Positions 452 to 54,149 of a stretch of DNA of 64,000 nucleotides are shown piece after piece. The position numbers were made by a program, and so were the translations under genes. Numbering within the stretch: the first letter of the stretch is position 1; each line of letters begins with the position of its first letter. The notes under the pieces are model-generated. The model was not told where the DNA came from. It was given only the letters and a program-made list of their open reading frames with translations, and made no database searches. Source of the DNA: Escherichia coli (GTDB taxonomy: Bacteria > Pseudomonadota > Gammaproteobacteria > Enterobacterales > Enterobacteriaceae); NCBI RefSeq assembly GCF_003334305.1, contig NZ_QOWS01000021.1. One strand, written 5' to 3'.

Positions 452-2689
452 GTGGACTGGCTTCTTGATGTTTTTGCAACCTGGCTCTACGGCTTAAAAG
501 TAATCGCGATAACGTTAGCGGTCATCATGTTCATCAGCGGGCTGGACGATTTTTTTATTGATGTCGTCTACTGGGTACGCCGCATTAAACGCAAGTTGAG
601 TGTTTATCGCCGCTACCCGCGAATGAGTTACCGCGAACTGTATAAACCAGATGAAAAACCGTTAGCGATTATGGTTCCGGCGTGGAATGAAACGGGCGTC
701 ATCGGCAATATGGCCGAGCTGGCGGCGACCACGCTCGACTACGAAAACTATCATATCTTTGTTGGCACCTACCCCAACGACCCCGATACTCAACGTGATG
801 TTGACGAAGTGTGCGCTCGCTTTCCGAACGTGCATAAGGTAGTCTGCGCGCGTCCTGGTCCCACCAGCAAAGCCGACTGTCTGAACAACGTGCTGGACGC
901 CATCACCCAGTTTGAACGTAGCGCCAATTTCGCTTTTGCTGGTTTTATTCTGCATGACGCCGAAGATGTGATTTCACCGATGGAATTGCGTCTGTTCAAC
1001 TATCTGGTCGAGCGTAAAGATCTGATTCAGATCCCGGTGTATCCGTTCGAACGCGAATGGACGCACTTCACCAGCATGACTTACATTGATGAGTTTTCAG
1101 AGCTGCATGGCAAAGATGTTCCGGTGCGTGAAGCCCTCGCCGGACAAGTGCCCAGCGCAGGCGTCGGCACCTGTTTCAGCCGCCGCGCCGTGACCGCTCT
1201 GTTAGCTGACGGTGACGGTATTGCTTTCGACGTGCAGAGTCTGACTGAAGATTACGACATTGGTTTCCGCCTGAAAGAGAAAGGTATGACGGAAATTTTT
1301 GTCCGTTTTCCGGTGGTGGACGAAGCCAAAGAACGCGAGCAGCGCAAATTTTTACAGCACGCACGGACGTCAAACATGATCTGCGTGCGCGAATATTTCC
1401 CCGATACCTTTTCGACTGCAGTTCGACAAAAATCTCGCTGGATCATCGGCATTGTTTTCCAGGGCTTTAAAACCCACAAATGGACCTCCAGCCTGACGCT
1501 GAACTACTTTCTCTGGCGCGACCGCAAAGGGGCAATCAGTAACTTTGTCAGCTTCCTCGCGATGCTGGTGATGCTCCAGCTTTTGCTGTTGCTGGCGTAT
1601 GAAAGTTTGTGGCCCAATGCCTGGCATTTCCTTTCTATTTTTAGCGGCAGCGCATGATTAATGACCCTGCTGTGGCTAAACTTTGGCTTGATGGTTAACC
1701 GCATCGTGCAGCGGGTGATTTTCGTCACTGGCTACTACGGTCTGACGCAGGGGCTGCTATCTGTCCTGCGTCTTTTCTGGGGCAACCTGATTAACTTCAT
1801 GGCCAACTGGCGCGCGCTAAAACAGGTACTTCAACACGGCGATCCACGTCGCGTCGCGTGGGATAAAACAACGCATGACTTCCCCAGCGTGACTGGCGAT
1901 ACCCGCTCGTTGCGCCCGTTAGGCCAAATTCTGCTGGAAAATCAGGTCATCACTGAAGAACAACTCGATACAGCACTGCGTAATCGCGTCGAAGGTCTAC
2001 GCCTGGGCGGTTCAATGCTGATGCAGGGGCTGATTAGCGCCGAGCAGCTGGCACAGGCGCTGGCAGAGCAAAACGGCGTGGCGTGGGAATCCATCGATGC
2101 CTGGCAGATCCCGTCCTCGCTGATTGCCGAAATGCCAGCCTCCGTAGCGCTGCATTATGCAGTACTGCCGCTGCGTCTGGAAAATGATGAGTTAATTGTC
2201 GGCAGTGAAGATGGTATTGACCCGGTTTCGCTGGCGGCCCTGACGCGTAAAGTCGGACGCAAAGTGCGTTACGTCATTGTTCTGCGGGGACAAATTGTCA
2301 CGGGGTTACGTCACTGGTATGCACGCCGACGCGGTCACGATCCGCGGGCAATGTTGTACAATGCGGTTCAGCATCAGTGGCTCACGGAACAGCAGACCGG
2401 TGAAATCTGGCGGCAATATGTGCCGCATCAGTTCCTGTTCGCCGAAATACTGACCACGCTCGGTCATATTAATCGTTCAGCAATTAACGTGTTGTTATTG
2501 CGCCATGAACGCAGTTCTCTGCCGCTCGGCAAGTTTTTGGTCACCGAAGGCGTTATCAGCCAGGAAACGTTGGATCGCGTCCTGACAATTCAACGCGAAT
2601 TACAAGTTTCGATGCAATCACTATTACTCAAAGCAGGTTTAAACACAGAACAGGTTGCGCAACTGGAGTCCGAAAATGAAGGAGAATAA
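452..2689 (+). pseudogene. nfrB: NfrB-like GT2 glycosyltransferase (phage N4 adsorption protein B) interrupted by an in-frame TGA at 1655-1657
   Basis: ORFs 452-1657 and 1661-2689 are in the same frame, separated only by a stop and one codon; the joined translation reads as one continuous NfrB-like protein. Confidence 0.7.
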
Positions 2690-7483: not shown

Positions 7484-7528
7484 AGGGCAAAGCGGAAACG
7501 GATAAGACGGGCATAAATGAAGAAGAAA

Positions 7529-7573
7529 TGGCGCGCCCTGCAGGATTCGAACCTGCGGCCCACGACTTAGAAG
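7529..7573. repeat. attL: 45-bp partial copy of the tRNA-Arg 3' end (pauD-like remnant)
   Basis: tggcgcgccctgcaggattcgaacctgcggcccacgacttagaag is identical to 54073-54117; coordinates approximate. Confidence 0.85.
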
Positions 7574-13619: not shown

Positions 13620-14195
13620 CTACGGCAGTGCTGGCCATTCAATATCCTGTGCAGTTGACGTATCAACACGGTTCAGCAACACCCGATACTTTTTCCAGGC
13701 TTCCAGCAATGAGGTTTCTTCCTCCGTTGCGATTTCCAGATCTACAGCATCCTGAAGTGGCGCAATATGCTCACTGGCTACCTGCATCAGGCTGTTTTTT
13801 GTTTCTTCCGCCTCTCGGATCCGGAACAGTTTTTCTGCTTCTGCATCTTTCACCCAGGCTGTGCCGTTCCACTTCTGAAACTCCCCTTCCGGCGATAACC
13901 AGGTAACATTTTCCGGTAACGGACCGAGTTCAGAAATAAATAACGCGTCCCCTGACGCTACGTCATAAACCGTTTTACCCCGATGGTCTTCAACGAGATG
14001 CCACGATGCCTTATCACTGTTGAAAACAGCCACAAAGCCAGCAGGAATATCTGGTGGTGCAATATCGGTACTGTTTGCTGGCAGACCTGTATGAGGCGGA
14101 ATATATGCGTCACCTTCACCAATAAATTCATTAGTTCCGGCCAGCAGATTATAAATTTTTATGGTCCGTGGTTGTTCACTCATTCTGAATGCCAT
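13620..14195 (-). CDS. tfa: Tail fibre assembly protein Tfa, 191 aa
   Basis: Conserved Tfa C-terminal motif; immediately downstream of the side tail fibre gene. Confidence 0.85.
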
Positions 14196-32256: not shown

Positions 32257-35937
<3,681 letters not shown>

Positions 35938-35963
<26 letters not shown>

Positions 35964-36483
35964 TCAGCAACCCCGGTATCAGTTCATCCAGCGCGGCTGC
36001 TTTGTTCATGGCTTTGATGATATCCCGTTTCAGGAAATCAACATGTCGGTTTTCCAGTTCCGGAAAACGCCGCTGCACCGACAGGGGGATCCCGTCGAGA
36101 ATACTGGCAATTTCACCTGCGATCCGCGACAGCACGAAAGTACAGAATGCGGTTTCCACCACTTCAGCGGAGTCTCTGGCATTTTTCAGCTCCTGTGCGT
36201 CGGCCTGCGCACGCGTAAGTCGATGGCGTTCGTACTCAATAGTCCCTGGCTGGAGATCTGTCTCGCTGGCCTGCCGCAGTTCTTCAACTTCCCGGCGCAG
36301 CTTTTCGTTCTCAATTTCAGCATCCCTTTCGGCATACCATTTTATGACGGCGGCAGAATCATAAAGCACCTCATTACCCTTGCCACCGCCTCGCAGAACG
36401 GGCATTCCCTGCTCCTGCCAGTTCTGAATGGTACGGATACTCGCACCGAAAATATCAGCCAGCTGCTTTTTGTTGACTTCCAT
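35938..36483 (-). CDS. nu1: Terminase small subunit Nu1, 181 aa
   Basis: Matches lambda Nu1 (MEVNKKQLADIFGASIRTIQNWQEQGMP…). Confidence 0.95.
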
Positions 36484-36660
36484 TGTTCATTCCACGGACA
36501 AAAACAGAGAAAGGAAACGACAGAGGCCAAAAAGCTCGCTTTCAGCACCTGTCGTTTCCTTTCTTTTCAGAGGGTATTTTAAATAAAAACATTAAGTTAT
36601 GACGAAGAAGAACGGAAACGCCTTAAACCGGAAAATTTTCATAAATAGCGAAAACCCGCG

Positions 36661-36672
36661 AGGTCGCCGCCC
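36661..36672. other. cos cohesive-end site (cosN core)
   Basis: aggtcgccgccc is the reverse complement of the lambda left cohesive end GGGCGGCGACCT, upstream of nu1; coordinates approximate. Confidence 0.8.
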
Positions 36673-36871
36673 CGTAACCTGTCGGATCGCCGGAAAGGAC
36701 CCGCAAAATGATAATAATTATCATCTACATGTCACAACGTGCATCTACGCCATCAAACCACGTCAAATAATCAATTATGACGCAGGTATCGTATTAATTG
36801 ATCTGCATCAACTTAACGTAAAAACAACTTCAGACAATACAAATCAGCGACACTGAATACGGGGCAACCTC

Positions 36872-37066
36872 ATGTCAACGAAGAACAGAACCCGCAGAAC
36901 AACAACCCGCAACATCCGCTTTCCTAACCAAATGATTGAACAAATTAACATCGCTCTTGAGCAAAAAGGGTCTGGGAATTTCTCAGCCTGGGTCATTGAA
37001 GCCTGCCGTCGGAGACTAACGTCAGAAAAGAGAGCATATACATCAATCCAAAGTGATGATGGATGA
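36872..37066 (+). CDS. Small hypothetical protein near cos (lambda right-end ORF equivalent), 64 aa
   Basis: ORF in a region colinear with the lambda right end. Confidence 0.4.
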   Translation: MSTKNRTRRTTTRNIRFPNQMIEQINIALEQKGSGNFSAWVIEACRRRLTSEKRAYTSIQSDDG

Positions 37067-37427
37067 ACATCCCGGTTTCTTCCACCATCGCACCGGAAAA
37101 GCGACTATGAGGGTAACCCTGCGTCTGTCAGCACAGTAAAACCCGGTGTGCATCGTTTTTGATTATTCCCGCACACTCACGCAGAAGGAATTCCCCGTCG
37201 GGCTACGGTCATGGTTAATGCGGGAATACGGCGACGATACAGCGCAGCTAAAAGGGTAATGGACAGATAGAGCGGTTTATTTCATTCCACAGGATTCTGA
37301 GTGCCCCCCCCTCCTCCAATAGGCTGAGCATCCACCTATATAGTTTTAATTTTCATCAATCCATTTAACTATCGTTTAATTGTTGTCACATAGGATTCTG
37401 CCGTTTTTAACAATGCAGGATAATAAG

Positions 37428-37752: not shown

Positions 37753-38214
37753 CTATCTGCACTGCTCATTAATATACTTCTGGGTTCCTTCCAGTTGTTT
37801 TTGCATAGTGATCAGCCTCTCTCTGAGGGTGAAATAATCCCGTTCAGCGGTGTCTGCCAGTCGGGGGGAGGCTGCATTATCCACGCCGGAGGCGGTGGTG
37901 GCTTCACGCACTGACTGACAGACTGCTTTGATGTGCAACCGACGACGACCAGCGGCAACATCATCACGCAGAGCATCATTTTCAGCTTTCGCATCAGCTA
38001 ACTCCTTCGTGTATTTTGCATCGAGCGCAGCAACATCACGCTGACGCATCTGCATGCCAGTAATTGCCGCGTTCGCCAGCTTCAGTTCTCTGGCATTTTT
38101 GTCGCGCTGGGCTTTGTAGGTAATGGCGTTATCACGGTAATGATTAACAGCCAATGACAGGCAGACGATGATGCAGATAACCAGAGCGGAGATAATCGCG
38201 GTTACTCTGCTCAT
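37753..38214 (-). CDS. Rz: Spanin inner-membrane subunit Rz, 153 aa
   Basis: Matches lambda/DLP12 Rz; follows the endolysin gene. Confidence 0.85.
37812..37994 (-). CDS. Rz1: Spanin outer-membrane lipoprotein Rz1, embedded in Rz in the +1 frame
   Basis: 60-aa ORF with a lipobox (VVGC) and proline-rich sequence, fully nested within Rz. Confidence 0.75.
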
Positions 38215-38708
38215 TGTTTCCCCCACAAACAGACTTCACGCTCAATCTCACGGCGAGTCATCAGTCCTTTCCATTGATTACCGCCAGCGTATGTCCAGCG
38301 CTGTAGCTGATCACATGCGCCTTTAATATCACCCTGGTTTATTTTGCGAAGAAGCGTCGATGTTCTGAAATTGCCAGCACCCACGTTGTAGACGAACGAG
38401 TAAAGAGCGCCGCGCGTTGTTTCCGGTATATCGACTTTGATGTACCGGTTAATTTGTCTGGCGACAGTTGCAAGGTCTTTATTCAGGAGGGCTTTGCACT
38501 CTGCTTCGGTATACGTTTTACCGGGAATGATGTCTTTTCCTGTATGCCCGTAACATACAGTCCATACACCAACTATGTCTTTGTAAGGATTATGTCTCAC
38601 ACCTTCCAGACCATCGTTACCACTTGGGCCAGTGATTAACACAGATGCTATAGCAATAGCCCCGCCACCAATAGCAGCAGCAACAGCTTTTCGTAATGAT
38701 GGAGGCAT
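38211..38708 (-). CDS. rrrD: SAR endolysin (phage-21-type lysozyme, RrrD-like), 165 aa
   Basis: N-terminal signal-anchor-release segment ([16 protein letters not shown]) plus T4-lysozyme-like domain; matches DLP12 RrrD as recalled. Confidence 0.85.
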
Positions 38709-38923
38709 TATTCACCTCTCGCAGCCTTGCGCTTATCTTCTTTAATCTTGAAATAAAGGTTTGTCAGGTACGTCAGCAGGCCAAATACCAGGCTACCCAG
38801 CACACCTATTGCTGCCCACTGTGAGGGCGTGACTTTATCGAGCAGCTGTAAAAACCAGTACCCGGCACTACCTGCTGAGGTGCCATAGGCGACACCCGTT
38901 GTTAACTTATCCATGGATTTCAT
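38708..38923 (-). CDS. essD: Pinholin S (phage-21-type, EssD-like), 71 aa
   Basis: Two TM segments and a charged C-terminus; immediately upstream of the SAR endolysin. Confidence 0.85.
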
Positions 38924-39032
38924 AACCCCACCTCGCAGACAAAGCGGGTGTAAATTGAGGGAATACTACGAAACGTAACAGACTCGGAGTCAGTGAATAA
39001 CTCAGGTATTGGGTTATCAGCTAATATCGAGA

Positions 39033-39068
39033 CTCAAAAAATGGAAAAACCCGCTCGACGGCGGGTTT
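39033..39068 (-). terminator. Intrinsic terminator hairpin upstream of S
   Basis: On the minus strand: aaacccgccgtcgagcgggttt followed by a T-tract; coordinates approximate. Confidence 0.5.
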
Positions 39069-39496
39069 AAGCTGTGTGACGAAGTAACCACTCTTAACAG
39101 CATAACCAATTTTTTACGTACGTAAACCACTAAATGATATTTGCGAGAATGCTACCGAGTATTGAAAACACCACTACAAATACATAAGCAAATCTCAACA
39201 AATAACCAACAAATAATTTCCAGCGTTATTTTTAGCCAATTTAAATTGAACCTTCAAATTATAGAGCACTTATAAATAACAGCCATTAATATAAATTGGC
39301 TAATAGATTTATTTTTATTCAGCCAAGAGCCATGAATAGGATTCGATAGAAAAAAGTTCAGATAAAAATAGAGATCTACTTCACAAATTAAACGAGAAAC
39401 CAAAACTTACATCTTGAAATAATCACATTGATTAGATGAATATTTATCGCGCAGTGACATCATTTTTTAATAATAGTTCAAAAAAAAGGGCTCACG

Positions 39497-40579
39497 ATGA
39501 AAAAATTAACAGTGGCAATTTCTGCTGTAGCTGCATCAGTACTGATGGCGATGTCTGCTCAGGCAGCTGAAATTTATAATAAAGACAGTAACAAGCTGGA
39601 TCTGTACGGGAAAGTTAATGCTAAGCACTACTTCTCCTCTAATGATGCAGATGATGGTGATACTACTTATGCCCGTCTTGGCTTCAAAGGTGAAACCCAA
39701 ATCAACGATCAACTGACTGGTTTCGGTCAGTGGGAATATGAATTCAAAGGCAACCGCGCTGAATCTCAAGGTTCCTCCAAAGATAAAACCCGTCTTGCCT
39801 TCGCTGGCCTGAAATTCGGTGACTACGGCTCCATCGATTATGGCCGTAACTACGGTGTAGCATACGATATTGGTGCATGGACCGACGTTCTGCCAGAATT
39901 CGGTGGCGATACCTGGACCCAAACAGATGTATTCATGACTGGTCGCACCACAGGTGTTGCAACTTATCGTAACAACGACTTCTTTGGTCTGGTTGATGGC
40001 CTGAACTTTGCAGCTCAGTATCAGGGCAAAAATGACCGAAATGAAGTAACTGAAGCTAATGGCGATGGTTTCGGTTTCTCAACTACTTATGAGTATGAAG
40101 GATTCGGCGTGGGTGCAACCTATGCTAAATCTGATCGCACTAATAATCAGGTTATCTACGGTAACAACGGTCTGAATGCTTCTGGTCAAAATGCTGAAGT
40201 ATGGGCAGCTGGTCTGAAATATGATGCGAACAACATCTATCTGGCCACCACCTATTCTGAAACCCAGAACATGACTGTTTTTGGTAATAACCATATTGCC
40301 AACAAAGCACAAAACTTCGAAGCTGTTGCACAATATCAGTTCGACTTCGGCCTGCGTCCATCCGTTGCTTACCTGCATTCTAAAGGAAAAGACTTGGGTG
40401 TTTGGGGTGATCAGGACCTGGTTGAATATGTTGATGTAGGTGCAACCTATTACTTCAACAAAAATATGTCCACTTTTGTTGACTACAAAATCAACCTGAT
40501 TGATAAGAGCGATTTCACGAAAGCATCTGGCGTTGCTACCGATGATATCGTTGCTGTAGGTATGGTTTACCAGTTCTAA
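39497..40579 (+). CDS. nmpC: Prophage-encoded general porin (NmpC/Lc, OmpC/OmpF family), 360 aa, apparently intact
   Basis: Signal peptide, porin beta-barrel sequence ending …VGMVYQF; located between Q and the lysis genes as in DLP12. Confidence 0.9.
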
Positions 40580-47242: not shown

Positions 47243-48382
47243 ATGGCAGCGGTTGAATTTCAATTGTCTAGGAAGATGATTGATTGGATAGCAAATTCTC
47301 AAGGAGTTTCTATCGAAACTCTTGCTGACCAAGTCATGCCCAAAAAGATTAATAAATTTCTTAACGGAGTGGTAAGTAAATCCGCAGCAGAAAAACTGGC
47401 AAAAATTGGAGGAATCCCTTTCGGTTTTTTATTTCTTGAAACGCCACCAACTCCAGCCAAACCCAAGATCCCTGACTTAAGGCAAGCTATAAATAGCCGT
47501 GAGTTAGGAAAAGATTTTTTTGATGTTTACTATGATATAGAATATAAACTTGAGTGGTACAAAGACTATTTAAGAGAAAATGGTAATGATGATCCACTCG
47601 ATTTTATTGGTAAATTTAAATTTAATAGAAAATTAAATTATAAGGTTGTTGCTACAGACATAGCAAACACAATACATTTTGATATACAAAAAGAGATAAA
47701 AAATGTCACTTTTGAGAGCTATTTTTCTAAAGTGGCAAAACTAATAGAAGACACTGGCGTATTAGTTTTCAAGAATGGTGTTGTGGGTAATAATAATAAA
47801 AGAAAACTTGACACGCGAGAGTTTCGTGGTTTCTGTATATCTGATAGCGTTGCTCCGATCATTTTTGTAAATAGCTCGGACGCGTTATCTGCGCAGGTAT
47901 TTACATTATTTCATGAGGTGGCTCATCTTTGGCTTGGAGTCGATGGAGTCTCTGGGTGGGACACAGAAAAAAACATAGAATCTTTTTGTAATAAAGTTGC
48001 TGCTGAAATCTTAATGCCTGATAATCTCTTCAAATCTTTCTGGCTTAATGCATCCAGCGATAATAATTATTATCGAGTAAAAGAGGTTTCTAAGTTATTT
48101 AAGGTTAGTGATTTCGCTTGTGCAATCAAAGCGTTACAATTAGATTTGATAGAAAGAAACACTTTGGAGATAATTAAAGATCAAGCTTACAATAAGCCCA
48201 AAAAAGAATCCAATGGTGGTTCTTTCTTTAACACATTACCTGTTCGTAACAGTCCAAAACTTACGAATATAATAATTTCCAAAGCAATGTCTCAACAATT
48301 ACCATTAAGGGAAGCAGGCGTACTGCTAAATGTAAAAGCAGATACAGTTGTTGAATTTTATAAAAAACGAGAATCTCTATGA
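47243..48382 (+). CDS. HTH-fused ImmA/IrrE-family (M78/DUF955-like) zinc metallopeptidase, 379 aa
   Basis: N-terminal XRE-like HTH; HEXXH motif (FHEVAHLW); AGGTGA SD; AT-rich; directly downstream of cI. Confidence 0.7.
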   Translation: MAAVEFQLSRKMIDWIANSQGVSIETLADQVMPKKINKFLNGVVSKSAAEKLAKIGGIPFGFLFLETPPTPAKPKIPDLRQAINSRELGKDFFDVYYDIEYKLEWYKDYLRENGNDDPLDFIGKFKFNRKLNYKVVATDIANTIHFDIQKEIKNVTFESYFSKVAKLIEDTGVLVFKNGVVGNNNKRKLDTREFRGFCISDSVAPIIFVNSSDALSAQVFTLFHEVAHLWLGVDGVSGWDTEKNIESFCNKVAAEILMPDNLFKSFWLNASSDNNYYRVKEVSKLFKVSDFACAIKALQLDLIERNTLEIIKDQAYNKPKKESNGGSFFNTLPVRNSPKLTNIIISKAMSQQLPLREAGVLLNVKADTVVEFYKKRESL

Positions 48383-48891
48383 TTCATAATGGAAAATTCT
48401 TAATTGATAGTAATGTCTTCATAGAGGCAAAAAACTTTGCATATAACTTCAATTATTGCAAAATATTTTGGGATTTTCTTCTCGCTTTACACATTAATGG
48501 TCTGATTTATAGCATTAATGCTGTAAAAAAAGAACTATGTGCAAAAGATGATCCATTGTGTAAATGGATTAAAGAAGAGTTACCATCATCATTCTTCGAA
48601 GATGAGCATAGTTCAATAGAAAATTATGCAAAGTTAATAAATTGGTCAACTAAATTAGATGTTACCGAAAAGGCAAAGTTTGATTTTGCAAGCCATGAAA
48701 AAGCAGATGCTTTTTTAATAGCCCATGCGATGACACATGGATATACTATTATTACCCATGAGAAACCATCCGGTGGCAAACCTAAAAAAAGAATAATGAT
48801 CCCGGATGCTGCTGCTTCTCACGGCGTTAAGACATTAACACTATATGAATTTCTTCCAAGATACGCTAGTCATAATTTTTCTTTGAAATAA
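48379..48891 (+). CDS. PIN-like (possibly DUF4411-family) putative nuclease/effector, 170 aa
   Basis: ATGA overlap with the upstream gene; N-terminal strand-Asp motif (FLIDSNVFIEA) typical of PIN folds; fold assignment is tentative. Confidence 0.5.
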   Translation: MIHNGKFLIDSNVFIEAKNFAYNFNYCKIFWDFLLALHINGLIYSINAVKKELCAKDDPLCKWIKEELPSSFFEDEHSSIENYAKLINWSTKLDVTEKAKFDFASHEKADAFLIAHAMTHGYTIITHEKPSGGKPKKRIMIPDAAASHGVKTLTLYEFLPRYASHNFSLK

Positions 48892-52695: not shown

Positions 52696-53038
52696 GGCCT
52701 GTCAGTTTCTTAAGATATCCAGACCAACCGCCACCAACTGGATACGAACAGGCCGCCTACAGGCAACACGTAAAGATCCAACCAAGCCAAAATCTCCTTA
52801 CCTCACAACACGGCAAGCCTGCATTGCGGCGCTTCAGTCTCCGCTGCATACTGTCCAGGTGAGCGCGGGTGATGGCATAACAGAGGAAAGAAAATGTCAC
52901 TCTTCCGCAGAAATGAAATATGGTATGCCTCGTATTCGCTCCCGGGCGGGAAACGAATTAAGGAATCTCTTGGCACAAAGGACAAGCGGCAAGCTCAGGA
53001 GTTGCACGACAAGCGAAAAGCAGAACTCTGGCGAGTAG
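52667..53038 (+). CDS. xis: Putative excisionase (Xis-like HTH protein); overlaps the int start
   Basis: ORF 52637-53038; internal Met [31 protein letters not shown] has an HTH; lies immediately upstream of int. Confidence 0.45.
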
Positions 53039-54057
53039 AAAAGCTAGGGGATTTACCTGATGTCACTTTTGAAGAGGCCTGCCTAAGATGGCTTGAGGAA
53101 AAAGCTGATAAAAAATCTCTCGATTCAGATAAAAGCCGGATTGAGTTCTGGCTTGAACATTTTGAGGGTATAAGGCTTAAAGATATCTCGGAGGCAAAGA
53201 TTTACTCTGCTGTAAGCAGAATGCATAACAGAAAGACGAAAGAAATATGGAAACAGAAAGTTCAGGCCGCCATCAGGAAAGGTAAAGAACTGCCTGTTTA
53301 TGAACCAAAGCCAGTATCAACTCAGACAAAGGCAAAGCATCTTGCCATGATAAAGGCCATTCTCCGTGCTGCAGAACGCGACTGGAAGTGGCTGGAAAAA
53401 GCGCCTGTCATCAAGATACCAGCGGTCAGAAACAAGCGAGTCAGATGGCTGGAAAAGGAGGAAGCAAAACGCCTTATTGATGAGTGCCCCGAACCACTGA
53501 AATCTGTCGTCAAGTTTGCGCTGGCAACTGGTCTGAGAAAGTCGAACATCATAAATCTGGAATGGCAACAAATCGACATGCAGCGACGAGTTGCCTGGGT
53601 GAATCCAGAAGAGAGCAAATCAAACCGCGCCATTGGTGTGGCGCTGAACGATACCGCCTGTAAAGTGTTGCGTGATCAAATAGGCAAGCATCACAAATGG
53701 GTGTTTGTACATACCAAGGCGGCTAAGCGAGCAGATGGAACATCAACGCCTGCGGTCAGGAAGATGCGCATCGACAGCAAGACATCATGGCTATCAGCTT
53801 GTCGTCGTGCAGGAATTGAAGATTTCCGTTTCCATGACCTCAGACACACCTGGGCAAGCTGGCTGATTCAGTCAGGCGTCCCATTATCAGTGCTTCAGGA
53901 AATGGGCGGATGGGAGTCCATAGAAATGGTTCGTAGGTATGCTCACCTTGCGCCTAATCATTTGACAGAGCATGCGAGGAAAATAGACGACATTTTTGGT
54001 GATAATGTCCCAAATATGTCCCACTCTGGAATTATGGAGGATATAAAGAAGGCGTAA
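52894..54057 (+). CDS. intD: Tyrosine integrase (IntD-like), 387 aa
   Basis: Matches DLP12 integrase as recalled; C-terminal catalytic region (…[15 protein letters not shown]…RYAHL); adjacent to tRNA-Arg. Confidence 0.9.
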
Positions 54058-54072
54058 CTGATTGAATTGTAA

Positions 54073-54117
54073 TGGCGCGCCCTGCAGGATTCGAACCTGC
54101 GGCCCACGACTTAGAAG
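54073..54117. repeat. attR core (3' 45 nt of argU), identical to 7529-7573
   Basis: Direct repeat seen in sequence. Confidence 0.85.
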
Positions 54118-54149
54118 GTCGTTGCTCTATCCAACTGAGCTAAGGGCGC
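54073..54149 (-). tRNA. argU: tRNA-Arg (anticodon UCU), argU; prophage attachment site
   Basis: Reverse complement reads GCGCCCTTAGCTCAGTTGGATAGAGCAACGACCTTCTAAGTCGTGGGCCGCAGGTTCGAATCCTGCAGGGCGCGCCA (77 nt, cloverleaf-compatible, CCA end); coordinates approximate. Confidence 0.9.

Follow-up and report, generated by a model that had tools for sequence, protein, structure and literature searches.

The 64,000 nucleotides of the Escherichia coli contig NZ_QOWS01000021.1 analysed here (the window) contain, upstream of the terminase gene nu1, the two genome ends of a lambda-like phage in joined form. The preliminary description had recognised the reverse complement of the lambda left end at this place, including the 12-nt cohesive end, and had proposed that it is joined to sequence resembling the lambda right end. 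Alignment with lambda (NC_001416) bears out both parts. Lambda nt 1-200 correspond to the reverse complement of window 36474-36672 with a single difference (199/200), and a match of this extent makes a chance resemblance impossible. Window 36673 then corresponds to lambda 48502, from where the right-end homology continues to approximately window 37083 (lambda 48092), a segment of 411 bp that contains 16 substitutions (~96% identity). Past this position, the sequences of lambda and the window are unrelated. The sole difference in the left end is a 1-bp deletion at G138, which falls in the R2-R1 spacer; the alignment is free of gaps over lambda nt 1-137, and the distance from cosN to R3 is thus exactly that of lambda. 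Judged by its sequence, this is an ordinary lambda-type cos, almost base for base that of lambda, and it had been read correctly.

Subsites of cos

The subsites were defined according to Feiss et al. 2015 (PMC4669245), a 2022 review (PMC9026076) and the annotated phage 21 record, and their positions were mapped by identity to lambda. All the described cos subsites are present, with the sequence, order and orientation that they have in lambda:

36673..37083, minus strand: lambda right-end-like segment (lambda 48502 back to 48092), which holds cosQ and a plus-strand ORF of the ylcI/ynfO family (36872-37066)
36696..36702, minus strand: cosQ GGGTCCT, the packaging-termination subsite, exact at lambda position 48473-48479
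36661..36672, minus strand: cosN cohesive end GGGCGGCGACCT, lambda nt 1-12 (12/12), the surrounding 36 bp being identical to lambda
36624..36660, minus strand: cosN-R3 spacer, lambda nt 13-49, with neither sequence nor length changed from lambda
36608..36623, minus strand: cosB R3 AGGCGTTTCCGTTCTT, lambda nt 50-65 (16/16 identical), TerS (gpNu1) binding site by identity to lambda
36587..36599, plus strand: cosB I1, IHF binding core AAACATTAAGTTA, exact match to the complementary strand of lambda nt 74-86
36549..36564, plus strand: cosB R2 CTGTCGTTTCCTTTCT, lambda nt 109-124, exact 16-mer, inverted relative to R3 and R1 as in lambda
36508..36523, minus strand: cosB R1 CTGTCGTTTCCTTTCT, lambda nt 151-166, exact 16-mer
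36481-36483, minus strand: ATG of nu1, 190 bp from the left end (191 in lambda)

A complex cosB is defined by the order R3-I1-R2-R1, with R2 inverted and R3 located at bp 50-65 (PMC4669245, PMC9026076), and the window shows each of these properties. The cosQ heptamer lies 24-30 bp before the right end, which is the distance at which cosQ is annotated in the phage 21 record. The cohesive-end sequence has no second match in the 64-kb window, even when one mismatch is allowed, with 0.23 matches expected by chance. By analogy with lambda, the cosN nicks are expected at 36673/36672 on the minus strand and at 36661/36660 on the plus strand. The length of the spacer between cosN and R3 is critical for nicking (PMC9026076); a deletion of 3 bp is already severely defective. 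Nearest to the subsites, the window departs from lambda at three positions. A48471G is two bases ahead of cosQ, T48486C falls into the stretch that separates cosQ from cosN, and the deleted G138 belongs to the R2-R1 spacer; according to the alignment, none of them is inside a defined subsite.

The extent of the site needs some correction. The preliminary description had assigned it to positions 36600-36700, and cosN, R3 and five of the seven cosQ bases are indeed within these limits. However, the whole cos runs from about 36508 (R1) to 36702 (cosQ) and exceeds them on both sides, with R2, R1 and most of I1 being located just below the range.

Because the I1 core AAACATTAAGTTA does not conform to the textbook consensus for IHF, WATCAANNNNTTR, I1 was located by its identity to lambda together with the phage 21 record, in which the equivalent segment is annotated as an IHF site. 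An exact search of the window for the consensus gave three matches, no more than expected by chance, all of them outside cos. No RNA family was found in the cos region using Rfam, and a promoter and terminator pattern scan returned only weak consensus matches near the chance level.

The presence of cosQ and cosN could also be accounted for by a PICI-type satellite that hijacks the terminase of a helper phage, as PICI cosQ and cosN are nearly identical to those of lambda (PMC9026076). The cos of PICIs, however, is devoid of R sequences and I1 and is followed by an rpp gene (PMC9026076), whereas in the window a full R3-I1-R2-R1 array is followed by nu1, A and the virion genes. The presence of cosB, nu1 and A rules out a satellite cos, to which we accord a negligible probability.

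Two ORFs on the plus strand are close to the site. One of them (36872-37066), approximately 200 bp from cosN, encodes 64 aa and was assigned to the YlcI/YnfO family by a family match; an intact and nearly identical 64-aa ORF is present in lambda (complement 48109-48303), where it is unannotated in the RefSeq record. The other ORF (36599-36856, 85 aa) crosses R3, cosN and cosQ; some phage records, among them that of phage Turner, list its equivalent as a hypothetical protein. As it spans the virion genome ends, it is almost certainly not a gene, and a chance ORF is the better explanation.

Terminase genes and packaging specificity

The genes nu1 and A are located directly downstream of cosB, and both products are ~99% identical to the lambda proteins:

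35938..36483, minus strand: nu1, terminase small subunit TerS (181 aa), 179/181 identical to lambda Nu1, with the differences A75T and L132I
34038..35963, minus strand: A, terminase large subunit TerL (641 aa), 638/641 identical to lambda gpA, its start overlapping the end of nu1

The substitutions in gpA are T334S, T466I and E534G. None of the NCBIfam models matched Nu1 or gpA, and the assignment of both was made via their identity to the lambda proteins. The first 74 residues of Nu1 are those of lambda and include the recognition helix (residues 17-24) and the wing (residues 31-39), in which K35 is present as in lambda.

[quoted passage not shown] In these three phages cosN and cosQ are shared nearly exactly, so that cosN by itself does not discriminate between them (PMC4669245). 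Lambda and 21 share both subsites and yet package each other's DNA more than 1000-fold less well, and the discrimination between the two has been mapped to bp 56 and 59 of R3 and to residues 20 and 24 of TerS (PMC4669245). The window has the lambda state at all four positions:

R3 bp 56: T in the window, T in lambda, G in phage 21
R3 bp 59: C in the window, C in lambda, G in phage 21
TerS residue 20: Q in the window, Q in lambda, E in phage 21
TerS residue 24: E in the window, E in lambda, S in phage 21

The lambda cos (NC_001416, nt 48473-48502 joined to nt 1-166) is like that of the window in cosQ, cosN, R3, I1, R2, R1, nu1 and A, and differs from it in the R2-R1 spacer, which in the window is one base shorter owing to the missing G138. 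The cos of phage 21 (OL657228) shares the 12-nt cohesive end, cosQ and the overall layout with the window, but differs in its R sequences and in the recognition helix of TerS; its R3 departs from that of the window at 5 of the 16 positions, among them bp 56 and 59. N15 (NC_001901) has a cohesive end that matches at 10 of 12 positions and the same cosQ, but it has a single R site, no I1 and a different TerS recognition helix. The TerS of the window is 99% identical to that of lambda, 52% to that of phage 21 (gp1) and 59% to that of N15. The R sequences and TerS helix that would denote phage 21 specificity are not found in the window. Nor does it contain the simple cosB of the N15 type, with a single R3, no I1, R2 or R1, and a terS start near bp 89; instead, there are three R sites plus I1, and terS starts at bp 190.

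The sharing of cosN and cosQ would be compatible with a 21- or N15-type specificity that has only cosN in common with lambda, or with a chance resemblance. The 199/200 identity to lambda extends, however, across cosB, and the cosB and TerS of 21 and N15 are clearly different. These alignments rule out both options, whose joint probability we regard as minute. R3, I1, R2, R1, the spacing between cosN and R3, R3 bp 56 and 59 and TerS residues 20 and 24 are all of the lambda type. The lambda packaging specificity that had been proposed for this site is supported, at the level of sequence, by every determinant described in the literature that could be examined.

The prophage, its natural relatives and the cryptic DLP12

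The preliminary description had considered the arrangement to be either the circularised or the prophage form. It is specifically the prophage form, and not a circular or concatemeric molecule, as follows from the att repeats, the integrase gene beside a tRNA gene and the host genes outside the repeats:

54071..54117, strand not applicable: att repeat, overlapping the 3' end of tRNA-Arg(UCU), with the integrase gene adjacent
7527..7573, strand not applicable: second copy of the att repeat, marking the other end of the prophage, between envY and ompT
54073-54149, minus strand: argU, tRNA-Arg(UCU), the one tRNA gene at this place, adjoining the integrase ORF
52894-54057: integrase gene, next to tRNA-Arg(UCU)

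The two 47-bp direct repeats are exact and lie 46,544 bp apart, a size within the range that lambda can package. Outside them are fimZ and the fimbrial sfm/fim genes on one side, and envY, ybcH and nfrA on the other. The cos is interior to the prophage, ~17.4 kb from its int end.

E. coli strain A7 (NZ_CP028767) and window 16300-57098 are 99.995% identical and differ only in the lengths of two homopolymers. In the A7 annotation, the lambdoid gene set is full and, ahead of cos, comprises int, exo/bet/gam, the repressor and cro-like genes, replication genes, Q, a porin gene, holin, endolysin, bor/iss and ylcI. From cos onwards it continues with nu1, A, W, portal, protease, D, E, FI, FII, tail genes, J, lom, tail fibres, an invertase and cargo including ompT. 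Those annotated as intact in A7 are int, exo/bet/gam, the repressor, the replication genes, Q, holin and endolysin and the terminase, portal, head, tail and fibre genes. Rz/Rz1 are given as pseudogenes in A7, but the Rz ORF of the window is intact. Full-length ORFs are present in the window for the terminase, portal, head, tail, lysis, replication, regulatory and integration genes.

The two homopolymers (C8 versus C9 and G6 versus G7 over 40.8 kb) are located at window positions 37312 and 37869. The second lies in Rz/Rz1, where Rz is intact in the window (157-aa ORF) and frameshifted in A7; this difference may be due to a sequencing error in either assembly. Within the tail fibre assembly gene and adjoining a pin-type invertase, Rfam gave a full-length match to IS009 (13654-13852, minus strand, 226.7 bits). 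Beside the prophage repressor, two paired genes (47243-48891, plus strand) encode an ImmA/IrrE-family metallopeptidase and a DUF4411 protein, named as in the A7 annotation only; the pair may constitute an accessory or defence module.

The prevalence of this region was determined with an 801-bp query centred on cos and covering cos/nu1. The query matches 167 phage records. Part or more of it is present in 4633 of the 5426 complete E. coli genomes, and at least 80% of it in 3273, with a median of two places per matching genome. Alleles were compared in a 280-nt alignment that extends from upstream of cosQ to the start of nu1. Phage Turner, a water isolate, has the same sequence as the window throughout this segment. 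All six natural phages compared (Turner, 2H10, Chlobot, PhiR34_1, PhiR49_1 and mEp332; records for natural lambda-like phages PP925837, LR595862 and PV3405xx) have an R2-R1 spacer that lacks 1 bp relative to lambda, and most of the six also agree with the window in having C at 48486 and G at 48471. Based on these alignments, the window carries the common wild cos allele, and it is laboratory lambda that stands apart from the other sequences compared in having the extra G (G138). The nearest whole phages, PhiR68_2, PhiR30_1 and PhiR34_1, cover 85-87% of the int-to-head half at ~97% identity. Natural lambda-like phages show mosaic differences from the window elsewhere, and no single deposited phage in the collection spans the whole 25-kb half compared. 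The viability of the PhiR and mEp phages is taken from the isolation and host fields of their records, because a literature search on the PhiR phage names yielded no paper, only an older one that names mEp332.

The cryptic prophage DLP12 of K-12 occupies the same argU integration site and has the same flanking genes as the prophage in the window. Its cos region, located at 580.6 kb in NC_000913, differs from that of the window at only ~5 positions in 280 nt, and it has kept nohD. The block missing from DLP12, however, extends from approximately codon 100 of gene A (window 35656) as far as the tail fibre assembly gene (window 14049). Because this morphogenetic block has been lost, the cos of DLP12 has no terminase or capsid to serve, whereas the whole block is present in the window. 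The prophage in the window looks like the intact form, and DLP12 like a deletion derivative of such a prophage; the cos marks the former as an intact relative of the latter. The prophage is a mosaic in which the packaging, head and tail genes are of the lambda type, and the lysis cassette, Q and the porin gene (37753-40579) are annotated as DLP12-type (essD, rrrD, quuD and nmpC/ompC; holin of 71 aa, endolysin of 165 aa). The porin gene (39497-40579) is intact in the window and disrupted by IS5 in K-12.

DLP12 also illustrates the only serious alternative, namely that the site is the relic cos of a prophage that is unable to make particles, intact in sequence but never used. At the same argU site, DLP12 has retained a near-identical cos together with nohD despite the loss of its morphogenetic genes, and among the cos/nu1 matches in 4633 of 5426 E. 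coli genomes many copies must reside in defective prophages. In contrast to DLP12, the prophage in the window has an apparently complete gene set made up of full-length ORFs, which are annotated as intact in A7 apart from Rz/Rz1, both of its att repeats are intact, and its size is packageable. It should be noted that the prophage may still be defective for reasons that are invisible to a sequence scan. Weighing these points, we consider a relic unlikely. Very probably, the site is the functional cos of an apparently complete lambda-like temperate prophage located at the argU tRNA gene of E. coli.

Expected course of packaging

The lambda packaging mechanism has been summarised in PMC4669245 and PMC9026076: TerL nicks cosN at positions 12 bp apart, DNA is translocated away from cosN, and packaging is terminated by cosQ together with cosN. 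Given the observed sequence identity, the prophage context and the identity to the cos of an isolated phage, analogy with lambda suggests how binding, nicking and packaging would proceed in a functional prophage of this kind. Induction would lead to excision and rolling-circle replication, generating concatemers. With IHF bending the DNA at I1, dimers of TerS (Nu1) would bind R3 and R2 on either side of the bend, R1 playing an accessory role, and TerL (gpA) would thereby be positioned to introduce the two nicks 12 bp apart at cosN. The terminase would stay on the cosB end, dock on the portal and pump the DNA into the prohead, starting with nu1, A, and the head and tail genes, that is, towards lower window coordinates. 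At the next cos, cosQ and cosN would trigger the terminating cut, releasing a linear genome of ~46.5 kb with the 12-nt 5' cohesive ends of lambda.

The cos itself holds nothing new: it is a textbook feature, found in most E. coli genomes and already known. Its value is one of annotation, in that it establishes the ends of the virion genome and the direction in which the prophage is packaged, and it raises no further question on packaging. With such a site, the prophage could swap packaging functions with lambda and serve as helper to satellites that bear a cos.

If excision were late or absent after induction, the terminase could cut cos in situ and pump chromosomal DNA towards lower coordinates. 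The support for this is limited to the site being intact and embedded in the chromosome, and we regard such a course as very unlikely. If it did occur, the packaged order would be the head and tail genes, followed by ompT, envY and nfrA/nfrB, and a second co-oriented lambdoid cos at another place in the chromosome could end packaging, resulting in a transfer of host genes resembling lateral transduction; E. coli genomes that match the cos/nu1 query do so at a median of two places.

The nfrB gene (452-2689, plus strand), which encodes a host factor for phage N4 adsorption, contains an in-frame stop codon at 1655-1657 that divides it into ORFs of 401 and 342 aa; in the A7 record, nfrB is likewise annotated as a pseudogene with an internal stop.
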